This document shows positions 20,590 to 60,003 of a DNA stretch of 64,000 nucleotides, one piece after another; position 1 is the stretch's first letter, and each line of letters opens with the position of its first letter. Below the pieces are notes generated by a model. That model was given only the letters and a program-made list of their open reading frames with translations, was not told the origin of the DNA and searched no databases. Both the position numbers and the translations under genes were made by a program. Origin of the DNA: Pelagomonas calceolata (lineage: Eukaryota); the NCBI GenBank assembly GCA_918797485.1, contig CAKKNE010000003.1, forward strand, positions 5,146,001-5,210,000, in the 5' to 3' direction.

Positions 20590-21199
20590 CAGCTGTCGCG
20601 TGTGTGTGTTGTCCACGCTGGTACGCGGCGTGAAAAACGCAAAAGTATTTGAGTAGTCGTTGGTCGATGTTTAAAAACAGGTACCGTAGGTACTGTATTA
20701 GAGTACCGTAGGTACCGTACCGTAGGTACCGTAGGTAGGTACCTACGGTACCTCACTCGTACTATAAGTACGAGCTGGCCCAGACCGTGGTCCTCGGGGC
20801 CGTGGACGACATCAAGGCCCAGTTCGCCTGGCAGGAAGCCGCGGAAGCTTCCAACTCCACCGCGTCCGGAGCTGGCAGTCCGCGGCCCCGCGGCCGGCGC
20901 GAATGCAGTGTGCCAGTGCACCTGGAGTGCGAAGAATATACCCTAGTACCCTAGATACGTACCGTTTCCCTAGTCGCTTTACACACGTCAACACAGTAAC
21001 AATGAGTGAACTTATTATTACATCTAGTGCTTATTATATTAACGGGGATTCACCTATGACCTCACTGGCAGTCCGAGTCGCCAATACAGTTGCCATGACC
21101 ACCTCAGGCTTGGCTGTACACACATTGCAGCCCCATATTTTCTTCAGGTTATGGGCCCACAGCCCACGTCGGGACTGGTCAGCAACCCCGTCATCGACA

Positions 21200-21288
21200 C
21201 CCAAGAGACCTAGCTACAGCAGCTGCATTGTGCACTTGCTGCACCCAGCTCATTAGATTCAAGCACATACCAAAGCTAATATCGCTGG
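21200..21288 (+). repeat. ~85-bp dispersed repeat B (also 48879-48975 minus and 51271-51360 plus)
   Basis: gacctagctac.....gctgcattgtgcacttgctgcacccagctcattaga...gcacatacc...taatatcgctg is shared by three loci. Confidence 0.85.
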
Positions 21289-21352
21289 ACCTACGGTACC
21301 GTACCTACCGTAGGTACCGTAGGTACGGTAGGTACGGTACCTACGGTACCTA

Positions 21353-23631
21353 CCGTCTCCGGACGTCTTTAAGTGTAACCTTATGGGTTGCGCGGCCCCG
21401 GCGGCGTTAAAATAAACTGGCAGTGTTTGGTTATCGGCAAGGGGTACCTAGGCCCTCGCGGCGCCAAAAAACGGGGCTGCCGGGTGCCGCGCCGCTGATT
21501 ATACCGGGCTCATTTACTGCTTCCATAGCGATACCCTCTGCGATAGCCTATACGCTTGCGTTAGCGACGTGAACCATCTTCGAGGCATCACATGCGTATG
21601 GGCAGGTAGCGCGGCGCATTTGAGGGTTAGCTACGTGCAGTTTATGTCTTACTCGAACGCGGGCGGCGGCGCGGCCCGAGGGGCTCTACAGACTCTCATC
21701 GCCGCTGGAAAAGTCCCAGTAACCTTTCTTGTTGGGGTCGTTGGCGATGTCGGCCAATGCCTTGGGTAGCTGGTGCGGAATGCGCTTCCAACCCATTGAT
21801 TGGAGGTACTTCTTCTTCGTAATGCGTACTTGGCTATGCTCCTGCTTGCCCTTGCTCCAGCCCTTCAGGCGGATCGTGTCCTTGGCCGCCTCATCCTTGG
21901 ACCAGAAGCAGTCGTCGAGGATCTCCGGGTCCATAGCCCAAAATTCTTCCTCGATGACTTTCCACAGCAAGTCTAATAACTTGTCCTTCGGCATCTGCTC
22001 CTTGAATTCATTGACGCGCTTGCGCACACGGCTGGCCAAGTGCGTCCACACCGCCTGGTCGAGGGCGTTGTGCGAGGGGCAGTGGCCTGCCTGCTTTCGG
22101 AATTTAATTCGGTACGTTTTGGCAGCCTTATCTAAAGTTTTGTGGTTCTCCGTCCGCGACGGAGGCCAAGTATGGTTGTCATAGCCGTGACCGGGTGCCC
22201 CATCTTCTTGTATTTCGATACAGTCCAATCCAGAGTCTTTGAAGTACTTTTGGACGGCTGCCAGGCCACCATTCGTCTGAACCATCATCTCGCAGTACTT
22301 CGCACCATCCATGGAGCAGTCGACCTGGTACTTGTCACCCGCCTTTCTGCTGTAGACTGGCTCTCTAACCATCTTTCCGACTTGTTTCGTGAATCGTTTG
22401 TCTGGTCTCAATGTATAGCCTTCTATGATGCCCTTCTCGTATACTTTCTCCTCCGTCACCCGCCAGATGCCTACCTTGCCGTCTCGCTCCCAGCTCAACC
22501 CATCCTTTGACCGTTTTGGCTGCGAGACCATCGCCATGACCATGATCTTCATGAGGTGGTTCTTGTTTTTGCATCGTTTGTACAGCTCTTTGGCTGGAGG
22601 CTCTTCTTTTTTATGGTATGTGTACTTCTCGTGGTAACCAGGGACAAAGAAGTACTTTTCGTCGACATCTGCGATCTCCTCGAAATTAGCTTGGTAGATG
22701 TATTCGGCATCAGCTAATGCAGCGTCGGCGTGCTTCTGATCCACGATCCTGGGCCGTGGAGTGACGCCATGCGTCTTGAAGTGCTTCTTTTTTATCTTTT
22801 TAACCGTCGTGAGGCCGATGTTGTTACCCTCGCCGTCTTGGACCCCGATGGCGCACACGTCGCGCGTCTTCAAAGCGCGGTTCTTTCTATAAATATCGCG
22901 CGTCTGCTTAATAATCCGGGGGTCGTCGGCCTTGCTCGTCCTCCCCACGTTACCTTAGGATAAATTTCAGTTTAGTCTCCGCTGGGGGCCCATGGGGCCT
23001 GCCGTCGCGGCGCGCGAACCCCCCGTACCGACCCGAACGAGCGGCGCTCTCTCGCGTGGCGTCGACGCAGTCGCTGGGCGACTCTCGGCGGCCGTTGAAG
23101 TGACCAAAGGACGCTGCAGATGTACCTTTTTTTCTCGAGTCTGTGGTTCCGGTAGCTTTTAGTCTCTTTTTGAGGCGCGAGATGGTGGCTTTCGTCGTCT
23201 GATAGTGCTCCAGCACGTCAGCACACGTGCCCGGTAATGCGTTCGCCTTGACCAGCTCGTACTCGCGTAATAGGTTCGCCGCGGCGCAGTTGGTGAGGTT
23301 TGATTTCCTGCCTTTACCATGTTTTAGCTGAAAATACGGGGGCTCTTCGTCCTTGAAGCGATGCTTGTAGAGGCAGATGCTTGGCACGAGGTTCTCGAAC
23401 TTAACGGGGTGCGGAATGTCGCGGCTGCCCGTCGGGCTAAAGAGGGCCTTGCGCTTGACCGAAACAGGCGGCGGCGGTCCCACAAACCGCGGAGAGAGCG
23501 GCGGCACATTGGGGATGAGGCCGCGCACGGCTGCGGCATTCAACAGCATATTTAAAGGCTCCAATTGCGTGCACCGTTGACGCTCGGTACAAAAATCTTT
23601 GAACGGTTACACTTATTCTAGGCCGGAGAGG
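21353..23631 (-). mobile_element. Full-length Tc1/mariner-superfamily DNA transposon (plant/oomycete mariner-like)
   Basis: Imperfect TIRs ccgtctccggacgtctttaagtgtaacc (21353-21380) and revcomp cctctccggcctagaataagtgtaacc (23605-23631), TA on both sides, and an internal transposase. Confidence 0.88.
21686..23564 (-). CDS. Mariner-type DDD transposase, 568 aa after removing intron 22954-23125
   Basis: Splicing gives SRKKG|NVGR. Motifs DVDEKYF, KIMVMAMVSQP, DGKVGIW, IQEDGAPGH and CPSHNALDQ parallel plant-mariner DEKWF/KVMF..VARP/DGKIG/QQDNA..H/SPDLN.LD. Confidence 0.88.
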
Positions 23632-23743
23632 TACGGTACCAGTACCGTAGGTACCTACGGTACTGTGACACAGAGCTGCCCAGGGGAAAGGAAAGGAACG
23701 CGGCAAGATGCTGGCCCGAACCGACAAAGAAGCATAAGGCTAC

Positions 23744-24978
23744 ATGTACGCGTTCGGCAGGCTGTTGTGGCGCGCGCGGGCAGGCTCTCGCCGGACCGTC
23801 GCGGGCTGCCGCCCTCCGCCCGTCGACGCGGATCATGATCTGGAGGAGATTTTGGCGAACAACAAGCGGTGGGTCGCCGCGACGAACGCGGCGGACCCGA
23901 CGTTCTTCCCGAAGTTGGCGGAGGGGCAAAGTCCTCAGTTCCTGTACGTCGGGTGCAGCGACTCGAGGCTCGTGCCGAACGACATGCTGGGGCTCGGTCT
24001 GGGGAATTTGTTCGTCCATCGCAACGTCGCGAATCTGGTCGTGGCGAGCGATTTGAACTTTTTGAGCGTGTTGACGTATGCTGTCGAACACTTGGACGTG
24101 AAACACGTATTAGTGACCGGACACTACGACTGCGGCGGCGTCCGCGCGGCGATGAAGAACCGCGGGCTCGGTGCGTCGTCCGAGTCTGTTTCACCTTCGT
24201 CCGCTAAAAATGAAGTTGAACTTGATGAACTCGATGCGGTCGCACCGATGGCGTCGACGCGGTGCCGCGCCGCCTCGACGCCGTCGACGCGGCCGTCGGA
24301 GAGTCTACCCGTCTCGGGGACAGTTTCGCGACTGCGTCGTTCCACGCAGGTCATTAACTCAGAGCAGAAAATAAACTTGAACTTGACGCCTGGTAGATGG
24401 CGTCTTCGTGAGACCGCAGTGATACGCCGTCGACCAACGCGGCCGTCAGAGAGTCTACGCGTCTCGCGAGAGAGCTGTGGCAGTTGCGCGACGCTGCTCG
24501 ACGGGTCTGCTGGGTCGCGGCGGCGGCGTCGACCCGCGACCGCCATCGCGAGGCCGATACGCCATCGTCCCAGAACTCCGACGCAGGCGTCTTGGACGGG
24601 TGGCTTACAAATATTCGGGACGTCTCTAGGCTCCACAAGGCCGAACTCGAGGCCATCGACGATTTCGAGCAGCGCCACCGGCGTCTTGTGGAATTAAACG
24701 TCGTCGAGCAGTGTTTGAACGTGTACAAAACGGCAGTCGTCCAGAGGAAGCGCCTAGAAACGCACGGCGACCCCGACGTCGCGTTCGCGTACCCGCGCAT
24801 CCACGGCCTCGTCTTTGACCCGGCCGAGGGAATCCTCAAGAAATTACCGATAGACTACACCGAGCAAATCGCCGAGCTCGGGGCCATCTATGACCTTTTC
24901 GACTGGGACCAGGACCACTACATGCTCCGCAAGGCGAGCCGCCTGCCCTCGCGACCGCCACGCGCGACCAAGGAATAG
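23744..24978 (+). CDS. Beta-carbonic anhydrase; intron 24171-24586
   Basis: GQSPQFLYVGCSDSR, FVHRNVAN, GHYDCGG; exon 2 has GWLTNIRDV...LVELNVVEQ...IHGLVFD. Confidence 0.95.
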
Positions 24979-25168
24979 TTTACAGAATTCTCGGCGGCTC
25001 CCCTCTGAACATAAGCAGATCAATACACACGGTAGCATATATAGTCGGCCGTAGAAGTCCGCAAGAAGTTCGGCTGGGGGTCGGAGGGTTGACCACTTCC
25101 ACACAAGGTCACGGTTGACACTGACGCCGGACCCCGGCCTCATGCTCAGACTAGGCTGGCAATCACCC

Positions 25169-25635
25169 TAGGATGCAAATTACCTGAGGGGTTATTGACC
25201 CCTGGCGCCGCCCGCCGGGGTTGTTACTCCGGGTAATTGCCGGTTAGTACGGCCCGGGGTTATTAACCCCAGGATCTTATAGAGGGGTCAGTGCCGGGTC
25301 ACGGTGGGGAGGGGGGGCATGGGCCTGTGACTCAGCTCTAGAGCTCAGGCTGGCGCGGGCCTGGGCCGCGCTGGGCCGCTGGCGGCGACATGCCTTGGTA
25401 CTTGCCTTGGCGTACCTCAGGCTGTACGTAGCCCAAGGCTCGCCCGGCTCAGGCAGCTTGCGCCCATCCGCTCGCCGCCTAGAAGGGTCTTTCCGAGTCG
25501 ATCGCAATCTGACTAAACCGTGACAGGTTTTAGTATCCATAAATACGGCATGGGGTTGACCCGGTATTCACCCGGATCTCTCTCGGGGTGACCAGGGGGT
25601 GATTCGCGGGCAAATGACGGGTAGGCGGCAACCTA
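25169..25635 (-). mobile_element. hAT-like MITE family C, diverged copy
   Basis: The reverse complement shares gagcggatgggcgcaag...cgccaaggcaagtaccaag...cccctctataagatcctgggg with 45864-46249 and ends in ggcaaccta. Confidence 0.75.
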
Positions 25636-25741
25636 GAATTACCCGGCCGAACAACGGGTGAGTTCTAGGTTCTACCTGCGGGCCAGTGGGGCCGTTCATA
25701 GTTGGGCACGGGAGGGGGCGAATAGCGATTATTCACATTAA

Positions 25742-26776
25742 TTACACCATCGCCATGTCGCGAAGCACCGCCTCGTATTCCGTCGTGCGGCGGCCGGCCC
25801 GGTCGCGGACGATGAGGGGTGCGGCGATCGCCTCGTCTCGTCGTCCCGCAGCATGGTCCAGGCGCCGCATGGTCCAGACGCCGAAGAGTGTCGGTTTCCC
25901 GGCGCGACCGACAACGGGGCGGTGCCCAACGACGACCAGCCCCGCCGCCTCGGCTGCCTTTTGGACGCGTCGCAGGTTGACGTGCAGGCCGCCCTCGCAC
26001 ACCACGAAAGTCCCAGTTGGCGCCATGACATCCACCGCCGCCTTGCAGTAGGCCTCGATTCCGCCGCGGAACTCGTAGCGCGCACCGGCGGACTGCTCAC
26101 AAGCGGGGAACGCGCCGAAATTCGTGGTGGCGCCCCCGGCCTCGTCCTGGGTAACGTCAAAGTACGGCGGCGTGCCCGTGACGAGCGTCGCGCCCCTCGC
26201 GCAGGCCGGCGTCGTGCGCAGGTCGCCGTCGAGCACGGCGCACGGCGCGCCGTTGTATGTCACCGAGCGGCGCGCCAAATTTGCCGAGTCTGCCTGCGCC
26301 TCGACGCCCAGCCCATCGTATCGTAGGCCCGCTTCCGTGCATCGCCACGCTACCATCTGAAGCACGGAGCCCACGCCACAGCCCAGGTCGACGTGGGTGA
26401 CCACCCCACCAAGACCTAAGGCGACTTGCGAGGCGACGTGCGCCGTGACGACGTCCTCGGTCGAGTAGCGATGACCTCCAACCCGCTGGAAGACGCGCCA
26501 ACTTCCACACAAACAGCAGAGCTCCTCTCCCGGCCCCGGCTCACCCACGCCCGCCGCGCGCGGTCCGCGGCGCGTCGACGCGCTCGACCGCGGTTGCGTG
26601 ACGCGGCCCGGTTCCGTGGAACGCTGCCTGCCGCGTCTCAGCGCCCCCGAGCCGCCGCACACGCGGCACAGGCCTGTGGCGCCCGCCGCCCGCTTGCGCC
26701 GACCCGCCGCCACGACGCCCGAGCCGCGGCATTTCCAGCAGGGGCCCGTCGCGCCGAAGCCCGGGAGCGGTGCCAT
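25742..26776 (-). CDS. SAM-dependent methyltransferase (TrmN6/YfiC-like) with an N-terminal CxxCxGxG zinc-binding pair
   Basis: GHRYSTED, VDLGCGVGSV, GVEAQ, GDLR, VTGTPPYF, ARYEFRG; CWKCRGSG and CRVCGGSG. Confidence 0.85.
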   Translation of the reverse strand: MAPLPGFGATGPCWKCRGSGVVAAGRRKRAAGATGLCRVCGGSGALRRGRQRSTEPGRVTQPRSSASTRRGPRAAGVGEPGPGEELCCLCGSWRVFQRVGGHRYSTEDVVTAHVASQVALGLGGVVTHVDLGCGVGSVLQMVAWRCTEAGLRYDGLGVEAQADSANLARRSVTYNGAPCAVLDGDLRTTPACARGATLVTGTPPYFDVTQDEAGGATTNFGAFPACEQSAGARYEFRGGIEAYCKAAVDVMAPTGTFVVCEGGLHVNLRRVQKAAEAAGLVVVGHRPVVGRAGKPTLFGVWTMRRLDHAAGRRDEAIAAPLIVRDRAGRRTTEYEAVLRDMAMV

Positions 26777-28135: not shown

Positions 28136-29029
28136 GGTCTTTTTGGCTGGCTTACTTACGGGAAGTACCAAGTAAATAGTTTAGTGTAACACCGCAATTG
28201 AAATTACTGGCAGTGCAAATAGTTACACAGGCAAAAGGTTACCTGCCCTCAGTCACGGTGACTGGCAGTGCCCACAGTTTCTCTGCCGAGGGCTGGTGCC
28301 AGTGCGTGAGGACAAAAATCCGACGGAGCGTCTGTTCGGGTTTTGGACTTTTAGTACACCACTGATTTCGGGTTTTGGGGGAATCCTGTGGGCTAAAGTG
28401 CCAAGTTTCTGGTCTAAAAGTAGACTAGGCGTAGGCACGTCCCGTACGTTAGAATTGTTTGATAAGAACCATAGTGGCCTGCGAACGTCACCCGCTGCCC
28501 CGTACCGTTAACGGTACGGGGCACACAGGCCCTAGTGAGTTTTGCGCCACTAGCATTTAAGCTGTTTTACGCCGGTCGTCAGAACGCTGTTCTTCGCCGC
28601 TCGCCCTTTCTTTCCGTCCCCGTAAAAACGTTTCTCTCGCTCCCCGCGTTCCGATGAGCACCTTTTCAAGATAGTTTCGCGGCGCGGAGGCGGACGAGGC
28701 CACAGGGCGGCCGCGCCGGTTGAATCCTGTCAATCCCTGTCGAACAGGTCTCCCTGGGGTCGCCTAGGGTCGGTACTATACACGTGCAAGCGCCTACGCC
28801 GCAAGCGCCGCCGCTTCAAGCATTTTTAGTCGATTTCTCTCAGCAGCCCATGAGCACCTTTTCAAAACCATCCGAGCCCACCTTGCCGCGAAACTGCCGC
28901 CGACACTGGCGCCTACGCAGCTGGCGAGTAGCGTGTCGCGTTGCGTTATAGGGTTGGCGAGGTCCTGGCTCACCAGCCAGAGGCTGGGCCAAGCCAACTA
29001 CGAGTGTTGCATAGTAGTAAATTGGTTTA

Positions 29030-30782
29030 CCGCGCTGGGCCGGCGCTCTTAGCGTCGACCTCCCGCCATCGACGCGACGACCAGCTCTCGATGGATGGAC
29101 GGTCACGAGACGAGAGGTGTCGATGGGGCAGGCGAGGCACGGGTGTCGGATCCGCATCGGCGCACCAGCGTGCCTCCTTGTTCGGGTTGTTTCCTTGGTT
29201 CGTGCACCAAGCTTCCCGCTCCTGTCTCCTCTAAAGTTCACTTTACCAGTGCTGATGATGAGGATCTTGCACCCGCCCCTTGGTCAGCACCCAGCGCAAA
29301 TTGATTTCCGGGCCGGCCCCCTTAGCGTCGACCTCCACGCCATCGACGCGACGACTAGCTCGATGGTTTCCACACGGTCACGAGACGAGGGGTAGGTGAG
29401 GCACGGGCAGGGTGTCGGATCCGCATCGGCGCACCAGAGCGTCTCCTTGTTCGGGTTGTTTCCTTGGTTCGTGCACCAAGCCTCGCTCCTGTCTCCTCTA
29501 AAGTTCACTTTACCAGTGCTGATGATGAGGATCTTGCACCCGCCCCCTTGGTCGCAGACCTGTGCAGAAATTGGATTTCCCGGGCCGGCCCCCTTAGCGT
29601 CGACCTCCACGCCATCGACGCGACGACTAGCTCGATGGTTTCCACACGGTCACGAGACGAGAGGTGTCGATTGAGACGTGGGCACGGGTGTCGGATCCGC
29701 ATCGGCGCACTTGCCGCCTCCTTGTTCGGGTTGTTTCCTTGGTTCGTGCACCAAGCTTCCCGCTCCTGTCTCCTCTAAAGTTCACTTTACCAGTGCTGAT
29801 GATGAGGATCTTGCACCCGCCCCTTGGTCGCAGACCTGTGCAGAAATTGGATTTCCCGGGCCGGCGCCCTTAGCGTCGACCTCCACGCCATCGACGCGAC
29901 GACTAGCTCGATGGTTTCCCACGGTCACGAGACGAGGGTGTCGATTGCACGAGGCACGGTGTCGGATCCGCATCGGCGCACCAGAGCGTGCCTCCTTGTT
30001 CGGGTTGTTTCCTTGGTTCGTGCACCAAGCTCGCTCCTGTCTCCTCTAAAGTTCACTTTACCAGTGCTGATGATGAGGATCTTGCACCCGCCCCCTTGGT
30101 CGCAGACACCGTGCAGAAGTTGGATTTCCCGGGCCGGCGCCCTTAGCGCCGACCTCCACGCCATCGACGCGCCACTAGCTCGATGGTTTCCACACGGTCA
30201 CGAGACGAGAGGTGTCGATTGCACGGGCACGGTGTCGGATCCGCATCGGCGCACCAGAGCGTGCCCTTGTTCGGGTTGTTTCCTTGGTTCGTGCACCAAG
30301 CTTCCGCTCCTGTCTCCTCTAAAGTTCACTTTACCAGTGCTGATGATGAGGATCTTGCACCCGCCCCCTTGGTCGCAGACCGTGCAGAAATTGATTTCCG
30401 GGCCGGCGCCCTTAAAGCCGACCTCCACGCCATCGACGCGACGACTAGCTCGATGGTTTCCACACGGTCACGAGACGAGAGGTGTTGATTGAGACGTGGG
30501 CACGGGTGTCGGATCCGCATCGGCGCACCAGAGCGTCTCCTTGTTCGGGTTGTTTCCTTGGTTCGTGCACCAAGCCTCGCTCCTGTCTCCTCTAAAGTTC
30601 ACTTTACCAGTGCTGATGATGAGGATCTTGCACCCGCCCCCTTGGTCGCAGACCTGTGCAGAAATTGGATTTCCCGGGCCGGCGCCCTTAGCGTCGACCT
30701 CCACGCCATCGACGCGACGACTAGCTCGATGGTTTCCACACGGTCACGAGACGAGAGGTGTCGATTGAGACGTGGGCACGGG
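29030..30782 (-). repeat. Tandem array of ~6.3 units of ~276 bp (intron plus 177-nt exon)
   Basis: ggtcacgagac recurs at ~29101, 29376, 29648, 29923, 30196, 30466 and 30742. Confidence 0.92.
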
Positions 30783-35795: not shown

Positions 35796-36277
35796 CGGGT
35801 CCGAAACGGTCCTAGTGTCGGCGGCAGTTTCGCGGCAAGGTGGGCTCGGATGGTTTTGAAAAGGTGCTCATCGGAACGCGGGGAGCGAGAGAAACGCTTT
35901 TACAGGGACGGAAAGGACGAGCGGCGAAGAACAGCGTTCTGACAAGCGGCGAAAAACAGCTTAAATGCTAGTGGCGCAAAACTCACTAGGGCCTGTGTGA
36001 CCCGTACCGTTAACGGTACGGGTCACCGCAGTTCATTTATTTCACTCAGGCCCGGGCTAGTAAATAGAAGATCCCATGATTTATTTATAATCTCCGAGTC
36101 GGTGTCACTGGCATGTGATAATCACTGGCATGATTACTTGGCCGGGGCCTGTTTAACCTCACCCCGAACCCATGTACACTGAGTGGTACGAGCCTCATAG
36201 CAACAGGACCGCCTTGCTAGTGTCTTACATGCGCTAGCGCGCGTCGAGGGCCAACATTCGCCCGTGAGACTGCCAAA

Positions 36278-38646: not shown

Positions 38647-38929
38647 TGCCTTTTCAATCACCACCTCTCGTGCTGATAGGTTGTTGGGAAGCAACCTCCT
38701 TCACGACAGCCGCTCAATGTGCAACGCCTTCAACGGGGAGTTGCGAGTAGGAGCGGTAGCGCACGGCTTTTATGATCAATTTTTCCTGGTCGTGGCTAGC
38801 GGCGTAAGACACTAGCAAGCAGGTACCATACCTACGGTACCGTACAAAGCCGCACTTTATTAAGCGGGTACAACAAGCTGGGGTACCAAAATCCCTTTAG
38901 TAGCGCGTCACAAGACCAAAAGCAAAGCC

Positions 38930-40594: not shown

Positions 40595-40612
40595 AATCAT
40601 TTAGGAGCTCTC

Positions 40613-42079: not shown

Positions 42080-42303
42080 GGCCAAAACGCGTAGCTGTAG
42101 GGATTTTAACTGCGTAGCGTCCACAGCGTATTAGCTATAGAGCTACCCCCTGGCCTTGCTAGTGCCTTACACGCCGCTAGCCTAAAGGAGAGATGTTCTG
42201 TCTTTTCCTTTATTTCTAACCAAGACTTCGGAAGATCCGAACCAGACTTCGCTGCCCACGCTGATACGGTACCGTGGTACCTACGGTACCGTACCGTAGG
42301 TAC

Positions 42304-42800
42304 TAGAGAGAGAGAAACCTACTACTAGTACTACTAGTAGCCCTTCCTACCCTAGATTTGTATCTCCCACTCTCTAAATTTGGAGTCTATACAGCGAGTG
42401 TCTTTGACGCTACGGTGTAACAACAATTTACTATAAAACACTCTCGTAGTTAGGTTGGCCCAGCCTGAGCCCTCGGCTGCAATGGAAATACACGTCTAGT
42501 AGGATCCCAAGGTTCAACTGAGACGTATCCAAGCACAACCCGTACTTGTATTACCCGCCTAGGCTACTTCCCATCCTAGGGTACTCCGATATCCCCTTAG
42601 TAGGGGGAAGTCGCCTCTCACTCCTAACTATTATCATCCTGAGTCACCTTAAATTGACGGACGTAATTCCCCGTCACAAACCCCATCAAACATGGGAGAA
42701 ACTATTTCGTTAGACGACTACACTACGCTGCCGGGGAAGTCCGGAGCTACACACTCTATTTCCCTATGCATCGCATCGGCTGGTGAGCTAGGAACCCTGA
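42304..42800 (+). mobile_element. LTR-like family A copy interrupted by a solo LTR
   Basis: Family A sequence breaks at ccctcggc and resumes as tggtgagctagga after 42780. Confidence 0.8.
42478..42775. mobile_element. Solo LTR (298 bp)
   Basis: TGCAATG...CATCGCA termini with a 5-bp TSD TCGGC (42473-42477 and 42776-42780); the empty site is visible in the 15132 copy. Confidence 0.88.
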
Positions 42801-43003
42801 AGTGTGCAAGCACCTTATCTCTCTCAAGCCAACTGAAAATAGCTATGTTCCGAGATTAGCGAAACTCTATGATGTGTCGAAGGCAAATCAGAACTACCTT
42901 AGAACATTTAATATTTTCAAAGACTCAGAGGTGAATACCGTAGGTACGGTACCAGTACCTACGGTACCGGTAAAAAAATAAGCCAAAAGGGCTGCCCGTC
43001 GCC

Positions 43004-45715: not shown

Positions 45716-45863
45716 ACTCAGTGTATTTTAAGGTAGCTCCTCGGCAGACTATCTCAACCGCCGTACTCCCAAAGGTGCGTACTCCTCAGGCTTTGGTCTT
45801 GCATTATTCGCAGCACTGCCGTGCTCCTAGGCGACGTAGGCGTACCACGTCCTACTCAGGCTC

Positions 45864-46249
45864 TAGGTTGCCATTAACCGGTTAATAACCGGTTATTTAC
45901 CTATTATTACCCCTCGAAGGGGATCCGGGGTGAATAACCCGCTCAATAACCCGACGGGTTTTCGACTAAACCCGTCTAGTGAGATTAGAGAAAGACACCT
46001 CCGGACGAGCGGATGGGCGCAAGCAGCCCGTTGGGCTTTTTGGATACGTACAGGTGCGCCAAGGCAAGTACCAAGTCATGTGGCCCGGCGCGGCCCAGGC
46101 CCGCGCCAGTGGCCCGTGAGGCCCCCTCCCCTACCCCTCTATAAGATCCTCAGGCTGAGGTAAATCTCCCGTACTGACCGGTAATTACCCGGGTTATTAA
46201 CCCCGGGCGGCGCCAGGGGTAAATAACCCCTCAGGTAAATGGCAACCTA
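45864..46249 (+). mobile_element. hAT-like MITE family C (TIR TAGGTTGCCA...TGGCAACCTA)
   Basis: 10-bp TIR and subterminal aataaccc repeats; highly similar to 60876-61255. A possible 8-bp TSD gtcctact (45849 and 46251) is offset by a few bases on the left. Confidence 0.85.
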
Positions 46250-46494
46250 GGTCCTACTGGTAGTATTCTTTTTTACATGACCATGGCCAAATAACCTGTG
46301 CACTAAACTAATAGTAATAATTACAAGTGTTGTACGCGCGGCGCATGGCAAATCAAAATCAAACGCCGAGGCGCATATAACGTCGGGCGAGTTCGTAGCG
46401 AGGCTGCCGTGGCGTCGCCGAGCCCGAAGATGTACACAGGACGGTGGGCGCGCAGGTCATGGCAACGAGGCGCGCCCGGCGAGGTCGAGCGACG

Positions 46495-48192: not shown

Positions 48193-49220
48193 TCGTCCTT
48201 GTGGCTGCGAGAGTGTCACGGCTGCCCCATGGTAAATTAGGTCATTATGGCACGGTACCTACTGCGGTACGGTACCGTATTCACTAGGCCTACTCTATCC
48301 GGGTATTTAACCAAGATAAGTGAGACTAGGATAGTGAAGCTAAGATAAAAATTTGGGAGATTTATAAGTGGAAAAGAGGCCGTTGCCACAACGGGCACCA
48401 ACCCCATCAACGCCACGATCAGCCTTACATAGGTTCGGGACAGCCCTTGGGTCTCTTATTAAAGCTCCTTCTGCAAACAGAGGGCTGTTGACCCCTCTCA
48501 TCACGGGCGCCGCGGGATTGCAACGATCCACCAATTGGATTCAAAGGTCGAACAAGAAGTTCCGGGGAAAACCCCACCTTTAGGGGAATTACCATAAGCC
48601 CCTTTGGCAGTGCCTGAGCTAAATTGGTAGGACAATTTAACTCGTCAACAAATCATACAGATTCGCAACAGGTCGAACAGGACGTACATGCTAGGGAACT
48701 AATCCCAGCTTAGGAATATAAATTCCAGCTCCATAACTGCCAAAGGCTGCTGGGGTTAATACCCGGAGCATCATAGACGTAAATACAAGGATACGTGGCC
48801 ATATCATAGCAGGTACCTACGGTACCGTAGGTATGGTACTAGAGAGAGAAACCTACTAGCCCTTCCTACCCTAGATATTTCAGCGATATTAGCTTCGGTA
48901 TGTGCTTGTGTCTAATGAGCTTGGTGCAGCAAGTGCACAATGCAGCTGTTGTAGCTAGGTCTTCAGCGATATTATGCATCCGAGTCCCGCGCCGCGGCGG
49001 TCGCCGAGGGGCAGTATTCAATCTGTTTTTCTTATGATAAGGCCACTCCCCTACGCCCCAAGGGCCACTCCGGCCACATGTGAAATTCTTGCTAACGGAA
49101 GTAGACATCTGGCGCTAGGCTGGCTAGTCTAGGCGGTTACTTACCTACGGTACCGTACAAATCGGAGGGCCTGAAAAAAATTATTAAAAAAAAAAGTACC
49201 AGCACGAACAACAACGAGAG

Positions 49221-51184: not shown

Positions 51185-51658
51185 TCTTCTCAGGGTTGAG
51201 GGGGTTCCCACACTCTCTCACGCCGTTTCAGTGAGAGTTCTTCCTGTTGGCATCTCCGTGTCACATTGACACCCGAGAGACCTAGCTACCACAGCTGCAT
51301 TGTGCACTTGCTGCACCCAGCTCATTAGACACCAGCACATACCGAAGATAATATCGCTGCAGTCACGGTTTTGATTTTACGATGTTACTACGCGTGGCGT
51401 GTTGAAGGGTGATGTAAGTGTATATAGAAGGGTATAGGATGGGGGGGGGATTTCGCCCTATTTATCGCAAGGCAGGCGTCGAGCCTCGTTCCGTTCAAGT
51501 TATCTTACTAGGGGTGGGCATCTCGACCAGCAACCGAGCGAGGGTGCTGAGGGGGGTCAGCTGTGAGTCTCTAGAGTGAGTAGGTCTTTGTCTCACCCCG
51601 AGTCATCATATTTACGCGAGAGGATCAGCACGGCCGCCGCCAAAACCATTTTTCCCTG

Positions 51659-52687
51659 ATGTTTGAGAGCAATTTGGCCAAATTTTATCTTGGCGTGCTC
51701 CTTCTGCTGGCCAGCAGCGGCATGGACGGGGCCTACCTTGATTCAACAATTTCCAATGGCACGTCGCATCCGATGAGAGCATCTTGCAGCGCTCTCGCGT
51801 TAAATTCGTCACATGACCATATCGACAGATATGGACAATTTGCCTCCGGCTGCTGCATATCTGAGCAGTATGACTTTGCATACATGAGGGCGGCACAAAA
51901 AATGGCGGGGACCACCGTTCAAAAGTCATATTTGCTGCCTTCTTTCTGCGATGTACTGTTCAATTCACACGGTCACGGGCAGCGGCTTTTTGGAGGAGCC
52001 GTTATACCGACGGGATGTGAGAGTTACCTACAGCAGCATGGTTTTCTTGACTGCACATGCAACACGACCATACAGCGACTGTCAACCATCGGGAGCACCT
52101 TCATAAACGTGCGCAATCCGTTTGCCAGGTTCATTTCTATCTACAAGTATGTCCTTCAAAATTGGAGTGTCCGGCATAAAAACCAAAAATATGTCGGCAT
52201 TTCGAAATTCCTTGAACTCTTTTCGGGTCCCAAAAGATTCACTGTCGACATTTTCTTTGATCATGAGGCTGGCTCTGGACATTGGTATTCGCAGATGTTA
52301 CACGTGTTTTCCATATGTAAATATCTACCAAACACAGCCCTCATTCCTCTGGAACCCGATGTGTTGCAGAATTTGGCCCCTGTTGTGCAGTCAATAAATT
52401 CTAGGCGAAACCCCGAGTTGCCGGCGATGATGGATCCCCAAAAATATTCATCGCGTAACCGCATGTCATATGCATGTCCTTGGCAATGCTATTATGAGCT
52501 TTGCCAGAAACCCTGTTTTGATTTTGTTTCGAAGCAATATGACCTCGACATCATGGCGCTCGACAGCATAGGTATCTATCCAGCTCCACACACAGTTGCG
52601 GATCTCTGGTTGGATTCGCAGGATTTGAATGCTTCCTGGTTGACCATCCCCAACAGGACACGAGCTTGTTTGCAGGTGTGCCAGTGA
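51659..52687 (+). CDS. Sulfotransferase-like protein (Sulfotransfer_2-type), intronless and low GC
   Basis: Signal-anchor N-terminus, QKMAGTTV (5'PSB), VRNPFARFISIYKY (3'PB), HWYSQ, YDLDI. Confidence 0.75.
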   Translation: MFESNLAKFYLGVLLLLASSGMDGAYLDSTISNGTSHPMRASCSALALNSSHDHIDRYGQFASGCCISEQYDFAYMRAAQKMAGTTVQKSYLLPSFCDVLFNSHGHGQRLFGGAVIPTGCESYLQQHGFLDCTCNTTIQRLSTIGSTFINVRNPFARFISIYKYVLQNWSVRHKNQKYVGISKFLELFSGPKRFTVDIFFDHEAGSGHWYSQMLHVFSICKYLPNTALIPLEPDVLQNLAPVVQSINSRRNPELPAMMDPQKYSSRNRMSYACPWQCYYELCQKPCFDFVSKQYDLDIMALDSIGIYPAPHTVADLWLDSQDLNASWLTIPNRTRACLQVCQ

Positions 52688-53239
52688 TTTTTATTCATTT
52701 TAGCTAAAATGCCGGCGGTGATAGAGCACACGGTGGCCTCATTTTGCGGTCGGAGAACGGATTTTTCTTGAGATCCCCCTTGGACGACGATTGCGCGCGA
52801 TGCGTTCCACCAGGACGCCCACCCGAGACAGACACGGCGCCGCAACTCAAGAACATTGCCCCGATGCATACATGAGGGAGCATACAGCAATCTTTCAAGA
52901 TGCTTCCAGGGCTGCTGCCATCCGCCGTCGGCGACCAGTCCCTGGGCAGTAAACTGCTGCAGGAAATAAGTAGGGTGCGGTGGTATACCGACCCTCTGCA
53001 ACGGTGTGAGTGAGTTTGGCGTAAGTGACCCCCCGTGTACACGGCACATGGGGCCAATGTGGAAACCGCCACGTAAAGGTGGGACTAGGCGAGGAGAGTA
53101 AGAAGGGGCTCAAGGGGCCTAGTGTAGTACTAGGGGGTATATTCTTCGCACTCCCCCTGGACCTTGATATGGTTTAGTTTTTCTCTTTCTTTCAGTTCAT
53201 AGAGTAGAGCTTCTGTGTCTACTCTATATTGTGAACTAT

Positions 53240-53541
53240 ACCGAGCTTCGGCGGCGGGAGGCCGGCGGCGGAACGCGCGTGGCGCCCGGACGCGTCCCCT
53301 CCGGGTAGGGAGTCGCTATCCCGCGGCGGCCCCCGATGCGCCCCCGTCGCGGGACTGAGATTCCGGCGTCCGGCCTGCTCCCCCCTCGCCGTCGTCGCCT
53401 CCGAGCCAACACTCGGGGCGACGGCGTACGTGGGCGGGGGCGGGGCGGGCGTTCGGTCACACAGACCCCGCGGCGGCCGGGTAGCTAGGCGGCCTAGCTC
53501 TAAGCAAAGCAAATAAATAAATAAATAAATAAATAAATAAA
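53240..53541 (+). mobile_element. GC-rich retroposon-like 3' end with (TAAA)n tail, interrupting a hAT ORF
   Basis: aaataaataa tract at 53511-53541 truncates the BED-finger-like reading frame. Confidence 0.5.
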
Positions 53542-53899
53542 TGACCCTGCTCCAGAACTGGCCATCGCAATAATTGCACTCCCAGCCCTGGATTTTTACC
53601 GTGAGGCCGCCCTCCTTTTCGACCACTTTGTGCGCTGCCGTCGTATGTTTGTCCCACGCGGCGTCCGCCTTCGGCATATTGAACGCAGGGGCAGCTCTTT
53701 ACTGGCCGCCGCTCCCTGTCCCATTGATTGTCATGATTGATTTTGAGTCTAGTGTCTATCATCTAGGGCATCGGGGGAGAGGGCGGCTTTTGGCGGCGTT
53801 TAAAGTACCGGGTTATTGACCGGGTTATTTACCCCAGATCCCCTCCGAGGAGTAATAATAGGTAAATTACCGGTTATTAACCGGTTAATGCCAACCTAG
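53542..53899 (-). mobile_element. 5' end of a hAT-like parent of MITE family C with a BED-finger-like ORF start
   Basis: Terminal ~90 bp match the family C 5' end; ORF MPKADAAWDKHT...WECNYCDGQF. Confidence 0.65.
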
Positions 53900-54330
53900 T
53901 TCTGGGGTCAAGAGGCTTGGGTTTTTAACTTTAAAGTTTGTTGAACCCGGGCCTTTCCCCCCCCCGCCCGGGTGGTGAAACGGGTTTTATTGAAACGATA
54001 GGCTTAGTAGGATTTGGACCGGCGTGACGCGCGCCCGGGCCGGCGCGCGGCGGCCTCAGGCTCGCCAGGCTGCGGGAGCTCAGCCCCAGGGCTGTAAACT
54101 TGAAGAGATCAAAGCCGCGCCCAGGACGCCTCCTGTCTATAGGAATCCGGCCCAGCCAGACCTTTCTAGGGTCCCTCCTCCTACCAAGGCAGAGGTACCG
54201 TACCTACGCCTCTGCCTCGCGATGCGTCCTGCCTCGCGCCGGCCGGACAAATAATATCATCAGTTGCGGCACAGCTCGCTCGCGGTCCTCTATAAAAAAC
54301 CAACAAACCGCGCCGGCCAAATAATAACAC

Positions 54331-56439
54331 ATGGCGGCGAAATTCGGCGTCAAGAACCGGGCGCCGGCGGCGATCCAGATCACCGCGGAGCAGCTGCTGC
54401 GCGAGGCGCACGACCGCGGCGGCGGGTCGGCGTCGGGCCACGCGCGGCGCCAGCGGTCGCAGATCACGGACCCCGACGAGCTGCGCGAGTACCGCATGAC
54501 GCAGCGCAAGGGCTTCGAGGACGCGATCCGCATGAACCGCGTGCACCTCGGCAACTACGTCAAGTACGCCAAGTGGGAGGAGGCGCAGGAGGCGTTCGAG
54601 CGCGCGCGGAGCGTCTTCGAGCGCGCGCTCGACGTCGACCACCGGTCGCAGTCGCTCTGGCTCAAGTACGCGGAGATGGAGATGCGGAACAAGTTCGTGA
54701 ACCACGCGCGCAACGTCTGGGACCGCGCGACGGCGATCCTGCCGCGCGTCGACCAGTTCTGGTACAAGTACACGTTCATGGAGGAGATGGTCGAGAACCA
54801 CGCCGCGTGCCGCGCCGTCTTCGAGCGGTGGATGGCGTGGGAGCCCGACGACCGCGCGTGGCACGCGTACGCGGCGTTCGAGGAGCGGCGCGGCGACGCG
54901 CGGCGCGCGCGCGCCGTGCTCGAGCGCTTCGTCGCGTGCCACCCGCGCCTCCCGTCGTACCTGAAGTACGCGCGGTGGGAGGAGAGGCAGCAGCAGCCGA
55001 CGCTCGCGCGCGACGCCTACGAGCGCGCGCTCCGCGAGCTCGGGCAGTGGGAGTTCGAGGCCGGCGAGGAGGCCGCGCTCTACCGCGCGTTCGCGCGCTT
55101 CGAGGAGCGGCAGCGCGAGCACGGCCGCGCGCGCGCCATCCTCGTCCACGCGTGCGCGACGCTCGACCGCGACGCGCACGCGGACGTCCACGCCGACCTG
55201 CTCGCCTTCGAGAAGAAGCACGGCGCCGTCGACGCCGTCGAGCGGCAGGTCGCCGAGCAGCGGCGGAGCGACTACGAGGCGCGCGTGCGCGACCACCCGC
55301 GCGACTACGACGCGTGGTTCGACCTCCTCCGCCTCGAGGAGGCGCGCTTCCGCGCGACCGGCGACGCGGGGCGGTGCCGCGCCGCGTACGCGCGCGCGTG
55401 CGCCCAGGCGCCGCCGGTGGCGGAGAAGCGGTACTGGCGGCGCTACGTCTACCTGTGGCTGGGCCGCGCCGCGTTCGAGGAGGTCGACGTGGGCGACGTC
55501 GCCGCGGCTCGCGCGGCGCTCCGGGCCGCGCTCGACGTCGTCCCCCACGCGGCGTTCACGTTCGCCAAGCTCTGGCTCGCGGCGGCGGACCTCGAGGTCC
55601 GCGCGAAGGACCTCGGCGCCGCGCGCCGGCTCCTGGGCGAGGCGCTCGGCCGCTGCCGGCGCCACGCCAAGGCGAAGCTGTACCGCGGCTACGCGAGCCT
55701 GGAACGGCGCCTCGGCGAGGTGGACCGGTGCCGCCGCGTCTACGGCGCGTGGGTCGAGGCGGCGCCGGCGCGCGCGGCCGCGTGGACCGCGCTCGCCGAC
55801 CTCGAGCGCGCCGTCGGCGAGACGTCGCGCGCGCGCGCGGTCCTCGAGCTCGCGGTGGCGCGGCCCGACCTCGACCGGCCCGAGGCGGCGTGGAAGAGCT
55901 ACGTCGACCTCGAGACGCGCCTCGAGGCGCACCCCGAGGAGGACGACGCCGCCGACGCCGGCGGCGCGGGGGAAAACGCCGTCGCGGCGCTCTACGAGCG
56001 GCTCCTCGAGCGCACGCGCCACGTCAAGGTCTGGCTGGCGTACGCGTCGTACGAGGCCGCGGCGCCGGGCGAGGCGGCGCCGCGGCGCGCGAACGCGCGG
56101 CGCGTCTACGAGCGAGCGCACGACGCGCTGCGCGACGCCGCCGACGACGACCGCGTCGCGCTCCTCGACGCGTGGCGCGCCTTTGAGGCCGCCGCGGCGC
56201 GCGCCGGCGACGCGCCGGCGCACCTCGACGCCGTGGAGGCCAAGCTCCCGCGCAAGGTCAAGCGCAAGCGCCCGCGCGCCGACGACCCCGACGCGTCGGA
56301 AGAGTACTACGCCTTCGTCTTCCCCGACGACGCGCGAAAGCCCGTCAACCTCAAGATCCTCGAGATGGCGAAGCAGTGGAAGCGCGCCGAGACGGCGCGC
56401 GCCGGCGGCGACTCGGCCGCGACGGGCGGGGCGACCTAA
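54331..56439 (+). CDS. CRNKL1: Crooked-neck/Clf1/SYF3 HAT-repeat splicing factor
   Basis: VKNRAPAAIQITAEQLLREA, ERARSVFERALDVDHR, HARNVWDRA, EKRYWRRYVYLW, FTFAKLW, EEYYAFVFPDD...LKILEMAKQWK. Confidence 0.96.
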   Translation: MAAKFGVKNRAPAAIQITAEQLLREAHDRGGGSASGHARRQRSQITDPDELREYRMTQRKGFEDAIRMNRVHLGNYVKYAKWEEAQEAFERARSVFERALDVDHRSQSLWLKYAEMEMRNKFVNHARNVWDRATAILPRVDQFWYKYTFMEEMVENHAACRAVFERWMAWEPDDRAWHAYAAFEERRGDARRARAVLERFVACHPRLPSYLKYARWEERQQQPTLARDAYERALRELGQWEFEAGEEAALYRAFARFEERQREHGRARAILVHACATLDRDAHADVHADLLAFEKKHGAVDAVERQVAEQRRSDYEARVRDHPRDYDAWFDLLRLEEARFRATGDAGRCRAAYARACAQAPPVAEKRYWRRYVYLWLGRAAFEEVDVGDVAAARAALRAALDVVPHAAFTFAKLWLAAADLEVRAKDLGAARRLLGEALGRCRRHAKAKLYRGYASLERRLGEVDRCRRVYGAWVEAAPARAAAWTALADLERAVGETSRARAVLELAVARPDLDRPEAAWKSYVDLETRLEAHPEEDDAADAGGAGENAVAALYERLLERTRHVKVWLAYASYEAAAPGEAAPRRANARRVYERAHDALRDAADDDRVALLDAWRAFEAAAARAGDAPAHLDAVEAKLPRKVKRKRPRADDPDASEEYYAFVFPDDARKPVNLKILEMAKQWKRAETARAGGDSAATGGAT

Positions 56440-56615
56440 CTTCAAGCAGCAGGATCGTAACGATCTCCACTAACGGCCCGGCCCGCCCGGGCGGGCTTCG
56501 ATGATGGGGAACTAGAAGCCGGGGATAACCTCATACCTTCAGGGGATTGCCAAAGACACGTCCAAAGACCCGTTTAGACGCACGAGCTTGTCACGGTATA
56601 AATACAAGGGGATAC

Positions 56616-56818
56616 TAGCAAGAGTATGTCGCAGCGTTATGTAAAGTAGCAGGGTGTTAGCTAACCAGCCGAGGGCTGGCTAGACCTGACTACGAGAGTG
56701 TTTTATAGTGAACTGTTGTTACACCGTAGTGCTTTTGACACTCGATGTATAGACTCAAATATTAGAGAGTGAGGGATACATATCTAGGGTAGGAAGGGCT
56801 AGTAGGTTTCTCTCTCTA
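56616..56818 (-). mobile_element. Solo LTR-like family A copy, 203 bp, with 5-bp TSD GATAC
   Basis: gatac|tagcaagag...ctctctcta|gatac. Confidence 0.85.
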
Positions 56819-56949
56819 GATACGTTACCGTAGGTACCGTAGGTATCATATCAGGTACCAGCTTGTACTACTGCGGTAAAGCTCATACGAATCGGAGTGG
56901 AAATCCGGCTCGGGGCTGCTAGCGCTGGTAGAGGTCGCCCTTTTTTTAG

Positions 56950-58029
56950 ATGACGGGCCGGTTCGGGGCTGCTCTCGCGCTCGTCACCGCGGCCGCGCGC
57001 CGCGACTGTCGCTGCGAGGACCTGGCGCTCGCGCGGCGCGCCCCGGTGCCGCGGCGCGTGGTCGTGCCGGCGGCGTTCGCGTCGCGGAACCTCTCGAGCC
57101 AGGTCGCGCTGCTCAAAGTGCCCGAGACGGGGTCGTCGACGGCGGCGAACGTCTTCGCCGAGCTCGCCGCGAAGTTCAAGCGGCCGGCCTGGGTGTCGAT
57201 GCGGCCCGGCGAGTTCGAGCGCGTCGTCGCGGCGCCGGCGCGGACCGCGCCGAAGTGGGCGCTCGGCCACCGCGGCTGGGGGCCGTGGCTCCGCGACCAC
57301 TTCGACGAGCGTGTCGTTGATCTCGCAACGACGGCGCGCGCGCCCGCGGCCCGCCTCGCGTCGAGCGCCGAGAAGCGGCTCCTGCGCGGCGAGCCCGCCG
57401 ACTGCGAGCGGGGCGCCGGCGTCGCGCTCAAGTTCTGGGGCGTCGACGCACAAAAGGGCCCGGCGGCCGGCGCGCGCCACTTCCTCAAGGTCTTCGACGA
57501 CGTCGTCGTCACCGAGCGCTACAACGAGTCGCTCGTCGCGCTCGCGCTCCGCCGCCGCCTCCAGCTCGGCGACGTCCTCCCGCCGCTCGCCAAGTACCAC
57601 GGTGGCGGCGGGCGCGCGGGGGCGGCGGCGCGGACGCCGACGCGAGCCGAGGCGGTGCGGCGCTGCGCGGCGACGGCGCGCAGCGGCTCCGCCGAGCTGG
57701 CCGTCGAGCGCGCGATCCACGCCGCCGCGTCGGCGCGGCTCGACGCGACGCTCGGCGAGCTCCGCGAACGCGGCGTCGACGTCGACGCGCTCCTCGCGGC
57801 CTTTGCCGAGCACCTCCACGCCGCCATGACGTCGGGCGCGCGCCACGTCGCCAAGGCGCTCGGGCGGCCGACGTCGCCGGCGACCGGTGCCGACACGCTC
57901 ATTATGAGCCTCTGCTTCCGCCGCTGCGCCATCGCGGCGCTCGATCGCGCGGTCGTGCTCGAGTATCCCGGACCCGAGGCGCCGCGCGCCGGGCGCGCCC
58001 GTGGCTGGCTCCGGCGCGGCGCCGACTAG
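56950..58029 (+). CDS. Galactose-3-O-sulfotransferase-like protein
   Basis: LLKVPETGSSTAANV, TTARAPAARLAS, FDDVVVTERYNESLVAL. Confidence 0.72.
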   Translation: MTGRFGAALALVTAAARRDCRCEDLALARRAPVPRRVVVPAAFASRNLSSQVALLKVPETGSSTAANVFAELAAKFKRPAWVSMRPGEFERVVAAPARTAPKWALGHRGWGPWLRDHFDERVVDLATTARAPAARLASSAEKRLLRGEPADCERGAGVALKFWGVDAQKGPAAGARHFLKVFDDVVVTERYNESLVALALRRRLQLGDVLPPLAKYHGGGGRAGAAARTPTRAEAVRRCAATARSGSAELAVERAIHAAASARLDATLGELRERGVDVDALLAAFAEHLHAAMTSGARHVAKALGRPTSPATGADTLIMSLCFRRCAIAALDRAVVLEYPGPEAPRAGRARGWLRRGAD

Positions 58030-58408
58030 AAGCTGCTACTAACAGGATCTACACCGAGAAGAATCAGGCCCTACTAGTAGACCGGCTCGACTGCCCACTG
58101 GCAAGTGTGGGCCCCAACGAGTTCCGCGGTGCAGCCGGGCAGCCGGGGCACGGCGACCATCTCGGCGGCCCATTGAGTACTATGGGCTGACCCGATGCAT
58201 TTTGCGTCGCGCCGGCGTTGAAATGCCGAGGAATCTGATTGGTCACTGACACGGTGGCGAGAGCCTTGGAGATGCCAGGTCACATCCGCCCTCGCCGGGA
58301 ATTTTTGAAGTGATTCGAGCTTGGTTTCGGGCCGGGATCTCGGATCTCCCTACTAGTAGTCATCTCGCCAACGCACCGAGTTGGAGCTAAATTTAAATAC
58401 TACTAAAC

Positions 58409-59616
58409 TCAGCTGGCGATACTCACCTTGGGTACGGTGCGGGCGGCCTCGGAGCCGAGACCGTCCCAGGCAAACCCCGGTACGTAATCGACGCGCAGGA
58501 GGCTCGGATCCCAGACGGCACGGAGCGAGGCGCAAAACGAGCCCGGCGGTGTCGCGCGGCCGGCGGCTGCGGCGACGCCGGAAAAGAAGGTTCGCTCGTC
58601 GCGCGCCGAGATGTCGCTGCCCCAGGATTGGATCGACGTGTGCGTGTTGATCTCACCGCGGGTCACGAGGCCCTCGAAGGGCGTCCCGTTGTACGTGAAG
58701 CGACAGGAGCCGTGAGACTGGAGCTCCTTGGAGACCTGCCACTGGTCCGTCTGCAGCGTGATGAGCGTCTCGTCGCAGGCGATGCCAAGGATGCGCGCCG
58801 CCGCCGCGCGCGGTATGATGAGACCCGCGTCGTTTCTGCCGAGGCGATAAGACGCGTACTTCCGCGCTGCGTGCTCGGGCCGCTCGAGCCGGAGCACGAG
58901 CGCCTCGAGCGCCCGGCCAAAATCGTCGCCGATTTCTACCTGTGTAGTAATCTAAATTTCACGGCGCGTTGTTTCCTCCACGCCATCGACGCGACACCAG
59001 CACGGCCGCGTCGTCGCCGAGAAATGACTTAGAGTGAAGAATGATCGGGTGCACCCGACACACCGGTTGATTTCCACACAGTCCGCGAACGTCGTCGTTG
59101 AGCAGCATGCCGTAGTCGGCGTCGGCCACCAGGACTTGGACCAGGAACCGAAGGTACGTGAGGAACCACGCGATCTGGCCGTAGCTCAGCCGCCACTCGC
59201 ACCGGAGGCCGAGCGCGTCGTAGTGCCGGACCATGTCCGCTAGCGGGCGAGCCTTTGACGTCGCGTTCAGCACGCGCAGATAGGGGTGCGCGCGGCGCTG
59301 CGCCTGGACCCAGGCGTTGCGCTCGACGTGCGATCGGAGCGTCGCGACGGACCACAGCATGCGCCCGCGCCGCCGACACGCGTGATCGCCTCGAAGTCGG
59401 CCTCGTCAAAGTCCAGGCGTCGCGCCCACTCGGTCTGGAGCGCCGGCGTCGTGCGGTAGCTGGCGCCGCCCATGCTCTTGGCGACCGCGAGCCCGCATTC
59501 GACGATGCGACTCTCCGCAAAATGTCCATCAACCAAGTCGCCTTCGTGGACCCCGGGATCGGCGGCGCCGCGCCCACCGACGCGACGACGACCAGCGCGC
59601 ACGACAGCCGCAGCAT
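58409..59616 (-). CDS. Glycosyltransferase family 25-like protein; introner-like intron 58940-59090; 5' exons unresolved
   Basis: LSYGQIAWFLTY...MLLNDD|VEIGDDF...GLIIPRAAAARIL...TDQW. The 5' part needs two frame changes I could not explain. Confidence 0.55.
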
Positions 59617-60003
59617 CTTGTGTGTGTGGGGCTGCCAACAATCGAACGAGGCGCCGCTTACCGTAGGTACTGCTGGTACCATGGTACGATTACCGTGGTG
59701 GCAGTATACCGAGGTACGAGCTTGTAGTACTATTGCGGTAGTGACCCCTAGTGGTCACGGTGCCCCCGGCGACCGCCAGATCACAATAATAGCTGCATGG
59801 TGCATTTACTACATTCCCAGGCTGCACATACCAATACATACCAACTCAAAGACTAATCATAGAGAATATCGCGGAACTGAAGCCTATGCGCTAGCGAGGC
59901 TCGGTGCGCAGGGCTCCGGAGGTGAGGTTTGGTCCTCAGAACTACTTTAGACACTCAGAACCTGCAGAGACGTCCCTCTCGATCTTAACTTCATTGCAAA
60001 GTC

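Follow-up and report, generated by a model that had tools for sequence, protein, structure and literature searches.

The subject of this analysis is a set of short, TA-separated arrays lying mostly upstream of gene starts, together with a DNA transposon placed between two of them, in a 64,000-nucleotide stretch of the Pelagomonas calceolata genome (contig CAKKNE010000003.1, positions 5,146,001 to 5,210,000 of the forward strand), hereafter the window. The window has a guanine-plus-cytosine (GC) content of 64% and consists of gene-dense eukaryotic DNA whose intergenic gaps are filled with repeats. Annotation from open reading frames (ORFs), Pfam matches, a codon model for coding segments that was trained on the window itself, and the strand of the RNA yielded 29 genes, with 28 starts and 28 stops. 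Pfam backs the labels MYB, carbonic anhydrase, CWC2 (Torus/WW), Yip1 and CRNKL1; PFDN4 has a match below the cut-off only, and the labels kinase, GT8, sulfotransferase and GT25, which come from an earlier model reading of the letters (the original prediction), were not confirmed by the Pfam scan of the window genes. The arrays and the parts of the transposon are listed in window coordinates; a CC..CGG pair is written ( ) and a CCG..GG pair [ ].

20679..20753, no strand: array of 12 core units upstream of MYB; its main chain from 20704 consists of balanced nested pairs, [][[][]]()
21292-21352, no strand: array left of the element, 13 units, the last being CC-TA, the apparent left half of a split scar
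21353..23631, minus strand: IS630/Tc1/mariner transposon, 2,279 bp, TA on both sides, imperfect and unequal terminal inverted repeats; the likely scar maker
21353..21380, plus strand: terminal repeat on the transposase 3' side; read in the transposase sense it ends ACGG, and it exceeds the other end by one base
21686..22945, minus strand: catalytic part of the transposase, D86-D241-D289 (DD47D)
22950..23549, minus strand: N-terminal transposase ORF, 199 amino acids
23605..23631, minus strand: terminal repeat on the transposase 5' side, starting CCT
23632..23662, no strand: array right of the element, on the carbonic anhydrase side; its first unit is TA-CGG, the apparent right half of the split scar
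38822..38845, no strand: array in the PFDN4/CWC2 divergent gap
42265..42303, no strand: array upstream of the 42079 ORF (kinase-like in the original prediction)
42935..42972, no strand: array upstream of the 43004 ORF (GT8-like in the original prediction)
48253..48280, no strand: array upstream of the 48192 ORF
48814-48833, no strand: array in the middle of the gap between the 48192 ORF and Yip1
49138..49158, no strand: array upstream of Yip1
54194..54207, no strand: minimal array upstream of CRNKL1, two half units only
56821..56860, no strand: array in a tandem gap, lying 105 bp ahead of the 56950 ORF start and 387 bp from the upstream stop
59659..59735, no strand: array upstream of the GT25-like gene, whose units differ in the orthologous alleles L006, L014 and L027

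The original prediction had placed footprint-like arrays in ten intervals close to gene starts, and all ten contain units CCG, GG, CC or CGG separated by TA. The window holds 21 copies of the whole unit with both of its TAs, TACCTACGGTA, all of them inside arrays; 100 dinucleotide shuffles yielded none. A systematic scan of the window returned 12 blocks with at least two units, adding to the ten cited arrays two that had been missed, 21292-21352 and 48814-48833; both lie more than 250 bp from any start, and the first is the longest of all. None of the 12 blocks overlaps a coding segment of the codon model, as had been proposed for coding sequence at large. The blocks occupy only seven intergenic regions, five divergent and two tandem in our own annotation, though the gap at CRNKL1 could be divergent as well. 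Several blocks look like a single array divided by later insertions, and the arrays at 42265 and 42935 share one intergenic region with inserted repeats between them. From core chain to ATG the distance is 38 bp for GT8, 42 for the GT25-like gene, 64 for Yip1, 76 for the 48192 ORF, 86 for CWC2, 93 for MYB, 105 for the sulfotransferase-like gene, 125 for CRNKL1, 174 for carbonic anhydrase, 183 for PFDN4 and 199 for the kinase-like gene.

The element located between the arrays 21292-21352 and 23632-23662 supplies a likely source for the units. In the transposase sense its first three bases (CCT) and its last four (ACGG) join into CCTACGG, the 7-bp array unit, the reverse of which is CCGTAGG; the arrays hold both orientations. 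The unit therefore has the make-up of a transposon footprint, namely bases of the element ends enclosed by TA on either side, and trimmed forms are also found, so that the footprint origin first suggested from the arrays is supported and its likely source identified in the window. The element carries imperfect terminal inverted repeats of about 27 bp flanked by TA, as ITm transposons do. The residues D86, D241 and D289 are conserved at 90% or more in 21 relatives, a profile search with the transposase reached Sleeping Beauty SB100X (E 4e-7), and a structure model (predicted local distance difference test, pLDDT, 78) matched the fold of Mos1 (E 3e-7, probability 1.0); the Pfam search of the transposase matched no family. 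The element can hence be placed among IS630/Tc1/mariner transposons, with a DDD/E transposase and, as modelled, an RNase H-like mariner fold. Its motifs DEKxF, QxDxAxxH and SPxxNxxD are presumably akin to those of the plant mariners (PlantMar).

Relatives of the transposase at 93-98% identity are present in marine assemblies, and record P0002, labelled Pelagomonas calceolata, equals the window transposase on inspection by eye save for a stretch that is spliced out in the record. The wider clade comprises 4,976 proteins at E 0.001; among 167 relatives with a parsable motif the catalytic spacing is 35-55 in 123 and exactly 39 in only five. In viral contigs a pattern search for relatives of the transposase gave 28 matches, none of them confirmed, and the arrays had no match of 20 bp there. 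The element had a contig depth of about 2,400 in the culture run X3, versus 340-660 in the flanks, and of 8-11 versus 47-73 in the wild metagenomes X4 and X13, which suggests that it is multi-copy in culture and rare in the wild; the high-depth X3 contig stops at 23633, directly after the TA that follows the element end. Sense and antisense RNA converge over the element. The sense RNA runs from about 23597 to about 22970, covering the N-terminal ORF only and halting within an intron predicted in P0002, and antisense RNA runs from about 21373 to 22945, the catalytic half being covered mainly in antisense. This arrangement looks like self-restraint or silencing of the element, with reads that may stem from any copy.

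The arrays are likely stacked excision scars of a TA-targeting IS630/Tc1/mariner family, probably clustered at promoters through access to open DNA and the creation of new target sites. Excision would leave two element-derived overhangs, CCT of three nucleotides and ACGG of four, and end joining would mostly retain both, giving TA-CCTACGG-TA, and at times trim one. Each cycle would lengthen the array by 9 bp and supply two TAs, one from target duplication and a new one at the centre of the scar. These TAs could then serve as targets for later insertions, by which arrays would grow in place and preserve how earlier events were oriented and nested. The flanks of the resident element, CC-TA-[element]-TA-CGG, place it within the central TA of an older scar.

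Arrays outside the window were collected from metagenomes with a 16-bp array motif as query, which returned at least 122 loci, 80 of them with long flanks. Removal of 26 bare three-unit query loci, three duplicates and six many-array loci left 45 loci, all non-redundant and of four or more units, and 27 of the 45 have repeats or genes in common with the window. The outside loci of about 50% GC may in many cases come from the low-GC chromosome regions of Pelagomonas calceolata (PMC9481584). Re-use of the central TA predicts nested pairs. With whole scars shuffled as units, 19 nested pairs were found in the outside loci against 5.0 or 7.2 expected (0 of 3,000 shuffles reached that number), and three in the window against 0.4 or 1.2 expected (p 0.002 and 0.08). 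Nine many-array loci gave only 24 adjacent pairs in 397 units, with no pairing rule, and were set aside as belonging to another organism or element; perhaps they are scars of a different element in another organism. These loci (L011, L016, L029, L040, L061, L063, L065, L095 and L119) have a GC content of 41-56% and chains of TA-CC-TA and TA-GG-TA.

Several observations weigh against this scheme. The nesting in the window taken alone reaches only p 0.08 under the stricter null, and the junctions that nesting forbids are not significantly scarce when whole scars are shuffled (4 versus 6.3-6.7, p 0.14-0.22; in the window 0 versus 0.7-1.0 expected), for which reason the argument from forbidden junctions was dropped. 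Unpaired units amount to 144 of 736 outside and 11 of 59 in the window. Other spacers are found, CCGCAG 29 times, CAAGCTGG 12 times and CCAGCAAG 11 times, which need other, unseen elements, likely sister families that share these insertion sites. With a single full element seen, its ends have no second copy for comparison, and no MITE (miniature inverted-repeat transposable element) sharing them was found in the window and the 122 collected loci, where three short matches looked like chance. A clean footprint joint across 21353-23631 appeared in no run and excision was never observed; one X4 contig skips 21288-23640, but its short side measures only 26 bases. The contig depth of the element does not equal its copy number. 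Finally, lossless joining of two non-complementary overhangs is unusual as the chief outcome of repair.

The position of the arrays relative to genes was evaluated in the window and in the 45 outside loci. An array lies within 250 bp upstream of 11 of the 28 starts and downstream of none of the 28 stops (Fisher p 2.9e-4), while non-array TAs are about equally frequent at both (14.0 per 250 bp at starts versus 13.2 at stops). Ten of the 12 arrays are near a start, compared with 31% of 1,125 intergenic TA sites (p 2.9e-4); counted by region, all seven intergenic regions have a start-proximal array, and the start-versus-stop difference gives an approximate p of 0.008. In the outside loci 29 gene heads versus 3 tails fall within 250 bp of the array, and 17 versus 0 within 100 bp. 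The control, 3,472 non-array intergenic TAs of these loci processed with the same gene caller, gave 529 heads versus 557 tails within 250 bp and 197 versus 270 within 100 bp. Among 134 scanned ORFs flanking the outside arrays 20 have a Pfam match, of which 18 face away from the array and two face toward it from 600-800 bp. The excess at gene 5' ends consequently persists, in the window and outside it, once TA density is controlled for. Of the original claim that the transposon targets promoters, the 5' bias of the arrays stands; targeting itself, as distinct from survival, is what we infer from it.

In the scheme of stacked scars, the transposase likely reaches open DNA at promoters and the arrays cluster there. 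The first insertion would prefer the nucleosome-free core promoter, which we regard as the least secure step, and feedback through new TAs would deepen the bias. A more ambitious version, in which the transposon writes its own landing pads, each exit minting a core-promoter TA, so that thousands of promoters in an alga among the most abundant in the ocean hold a growing, oriented and nested log of its jumps and the pads act as a safe harbour that diverts insertions from genes and help to keep the start open, seems rather unlikely. The scars might also be as proposed and yet owe their 5' position to survival, with insertions falling everywhere and selection or drift keeping those in promoters. 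The lack of scars in coding DNA fits selection, although the whole scar, which adds 9 bp, has a stop in only one of six frames and genic scars are nevertheless lacking. Selection does not readily account for the lack of arrays at all 28 stops, where TAs are equally dense, or for 29 versus 3 outside, and a MITE of another family, also flanked by TA, is retained in 3' and convergent gaps, so that insertions are tolerated there. Since 3' ends offer as many TAs and retain that MITE, access during integration is the likeliest cause of the bias, and a decisive role of survival is unlikely.

A further explanation, which we hold to be improbable, takes the arrays for functional promoter elements, factor-binding or nucleosome-excluding palindromes that were either co-opted from scars or arose independently of them. 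RNA 5' ends do fall close to arrays. Those of carbonic anhydrase, at 23664 and 23671, are 2-9 bp past its array, and those of PFDN4, at 38785-38786, are about 36 bp from its array (both from read ends of polyA RNA, as approximate start sites); moreover, an ATG lies within 100 bp of the array in 17 of the 45 outside loci. Against such a function, 17 of the 28 window starts have no array, and expression of array-bearing genes ranges from strong to barely detectable, with read depths of 1-13 for CRNKL1, the kinase-like gene and the 48192 ORF versus about 60 and 200 for the array-less Erv1 and 51659 ORF. The arrays also vary among four alleles of one promoter. The orthologous GT25-like promoter was found in three metagenome contigs with 89-93% identity to the window (L006, L014 and L027), which have the flanks and the first CCG unit in common with it and carry different arrays, that of L027 being also unlike those of the other two. 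Hence sequence conservation, as expected of co-opted elements, was absent at the one promoter compared, and the differing alleles indicate, for that promoter, that arrays grow in place and independently. Four further loci (L093, L096, L012 and L017) were rejected as orthologues of window arrays, being copies of neighbouring repeats. The suggestion in the original prediction that scars have been co-opted as promoter elements therefore finds no support, given the variable promoter alleles and the expression of array-less genes, and we allow it a slim chance; the scars are probably near-neutral passengers and not evolved promoter elements. Some arrays are transcribed, as RNA reads at window position 20737 bear long arrays from other loci.

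The 7-bp unit might alternatively be the product of two events, a 2-nucleotide CC scar and a 3-nucleotide CGG scar stacked by oriented re-insertion, given that lone CC/GG and CCG/CGG units occur and that the element ends read CC and CCG ahead of their common inner repeat. Separate scars should follow one another in free order; however, the order is fixed. In the window CC is followed by CGG, or CCG by GG, at 21 of 45 junctions and the reverse holds at 6 of 45 (p at most 1e-5), CC following CC at only one of 45. In 70 outside loci the first order accounts for 265 of 578 junctions, or for 140 of 371 when those within the query motif are left aside, and the reverse order for 77. In addition, one-base-short forms were recorded in 102 loci, CCACGG 29 times outside and twice in the window, CCGAGG twice outside and once in the window; these match a single 3+4-base joint trimmed on one side and imply that the middle T and A belong to the ends of the element. 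Two separate events are thus highly improbable. Least credible of all is a 9-bp minisatellite grown by replication slippage, or tails moved by an adjacent repeat, for although same-orientation runs exist and a repeat of about 210 bp, among others, often adjoins arrays, that repeat is array-free at 5305 and 15116 and meets arrays at either end, orientation switches are as frequent as repeats (successive whole scars fall into three classes of 24, 20 and 21 when freed of query inflation, without orientation bias), units are nested and match the ends of the element, and alleles vary between unique flanks.

Stacked scars of this kind have partial precedents. Excision footprints are published for the Stowaway/PlantMar (DD39D) group, from Osmar5, Ppmar2, 14T32 and an intron of the Triticeae beta-amylase gene, together with one case of re-insertion of a plant mariner at a TA beside an earlier footprint (PMC1925063, PMC9632168, PMC4561436). 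As in those plant mariners, the TA duplication is kept and 1-4 nucleotides of the element ends remain on one or both sides. The plant cases involve one or two events per site, unlike the stacks found here, which reach about 20 units and recur at many promoters; moreover, the dominant whole scar makes a new TA, the unequal ends give a legible orientation, and scars are nested. PlantMar elements are defined by DD39D (PMC7325037) whereas the present transposase is DD47D; the element works like PlantMar but lacks that spacing. With Mos1 and Sleeping Beauty it has in common the fold, the catalytic core, the TA target and element-derived footprints. The ends of those two transposons are symmetric, unlike the unequal ends of this one. 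Their footprints measure at most 3 nucleotides (PMC9632168) and their identity to the window transposase is only 11-15%. Tc1/mariner MITEs peak in promoter regions, and Hermes, a hAT transposon studied in yeast, is likewise enriched in open DNA near gene starts (PMC3579700); promoter access is argued here by analogy with both, although Hermes belongs to another superfamily, leaves another footprint, and its preference was measured on new insertions and not read from scars. Introner elements of pelagophytes, mentioned in PMC9481584, are also derived from DNA transposons and reshape the same genomes, but they remain in genes as introns, whereas the arrays are promoter residues left after excision.

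These sources already record mariner footprints, a preference for promoters and a single re-insertion next to a footprint. Nested genome-wide footprint stacks, a footprint that makes its own target, and these particular arrays were undescribed in a full-text literature search whose reach excluded most subscription papers. The main texts of two pelagophyte genome papers, PMC9481584 and one in bioRxiv, carry no mention of the arrays in the portions available, and the words footprint and mariner had no match in four of the five supplements of PMC9481584, one of which was covered only in part. The observation itself is real and largely explained. About 35 events (24 pairs and 11 single units) appear to be written in seven promoter regions of 64 kb, versus one resident copy. 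DNA transposons usually escape notice once excised, so that their turnover and their choice of targets are difficult to gauge on evolutionary time scales; in these arrays every exit seems to leave a 9-bp mark that can be counted, is oriented and nests with others. If this held genome-wide, the arrays would naturally record the flux of the transposon event by event, would serve as fast allelic markers in wild populations, and would provide a clear instance of target-site positive feedback and a ready test of whether junk in core promoters turns regulatory.

Other repeats and genes of the window deserve a brief description. The TA-flanked MITE family with terminal repeat GGTTGCCA occupies 45866-46255, 60878-61255 and 25171-25635, with single ends at 18168 and 53890, mostly in 3' or convergent gaps, a preference opposite to that of the arrays. 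The repeat of about 210 bp is bounded by TA, has no evident terminal repeats, and is found at 5305-5532, 15116-15334, 42334-42468 and 56616-56818, with a part at 48840; in many outside loci it adjoins arrays by either end. The ORFs 51659-52687 (plus strand) and 53219-53677 (minus strand), of lower GC and set amid repeats, lack arrays yet are well transcribed, their RNA 5' ends lying near 51518 and 53733. A partial, inverted MYB paralogue with about 80% identity is formed by 17056-18177 relative to 18302-20589. On the 3' side of the DUF285 gene a tandem repeat of about 290 bp extends over 29000-30780, and the gene is flanked by an inverted repeat pair, 28493-28669 and 35856-36028, each with a perfect palindrome of 28-30 bp, which could represent the ends of one mobile unit.

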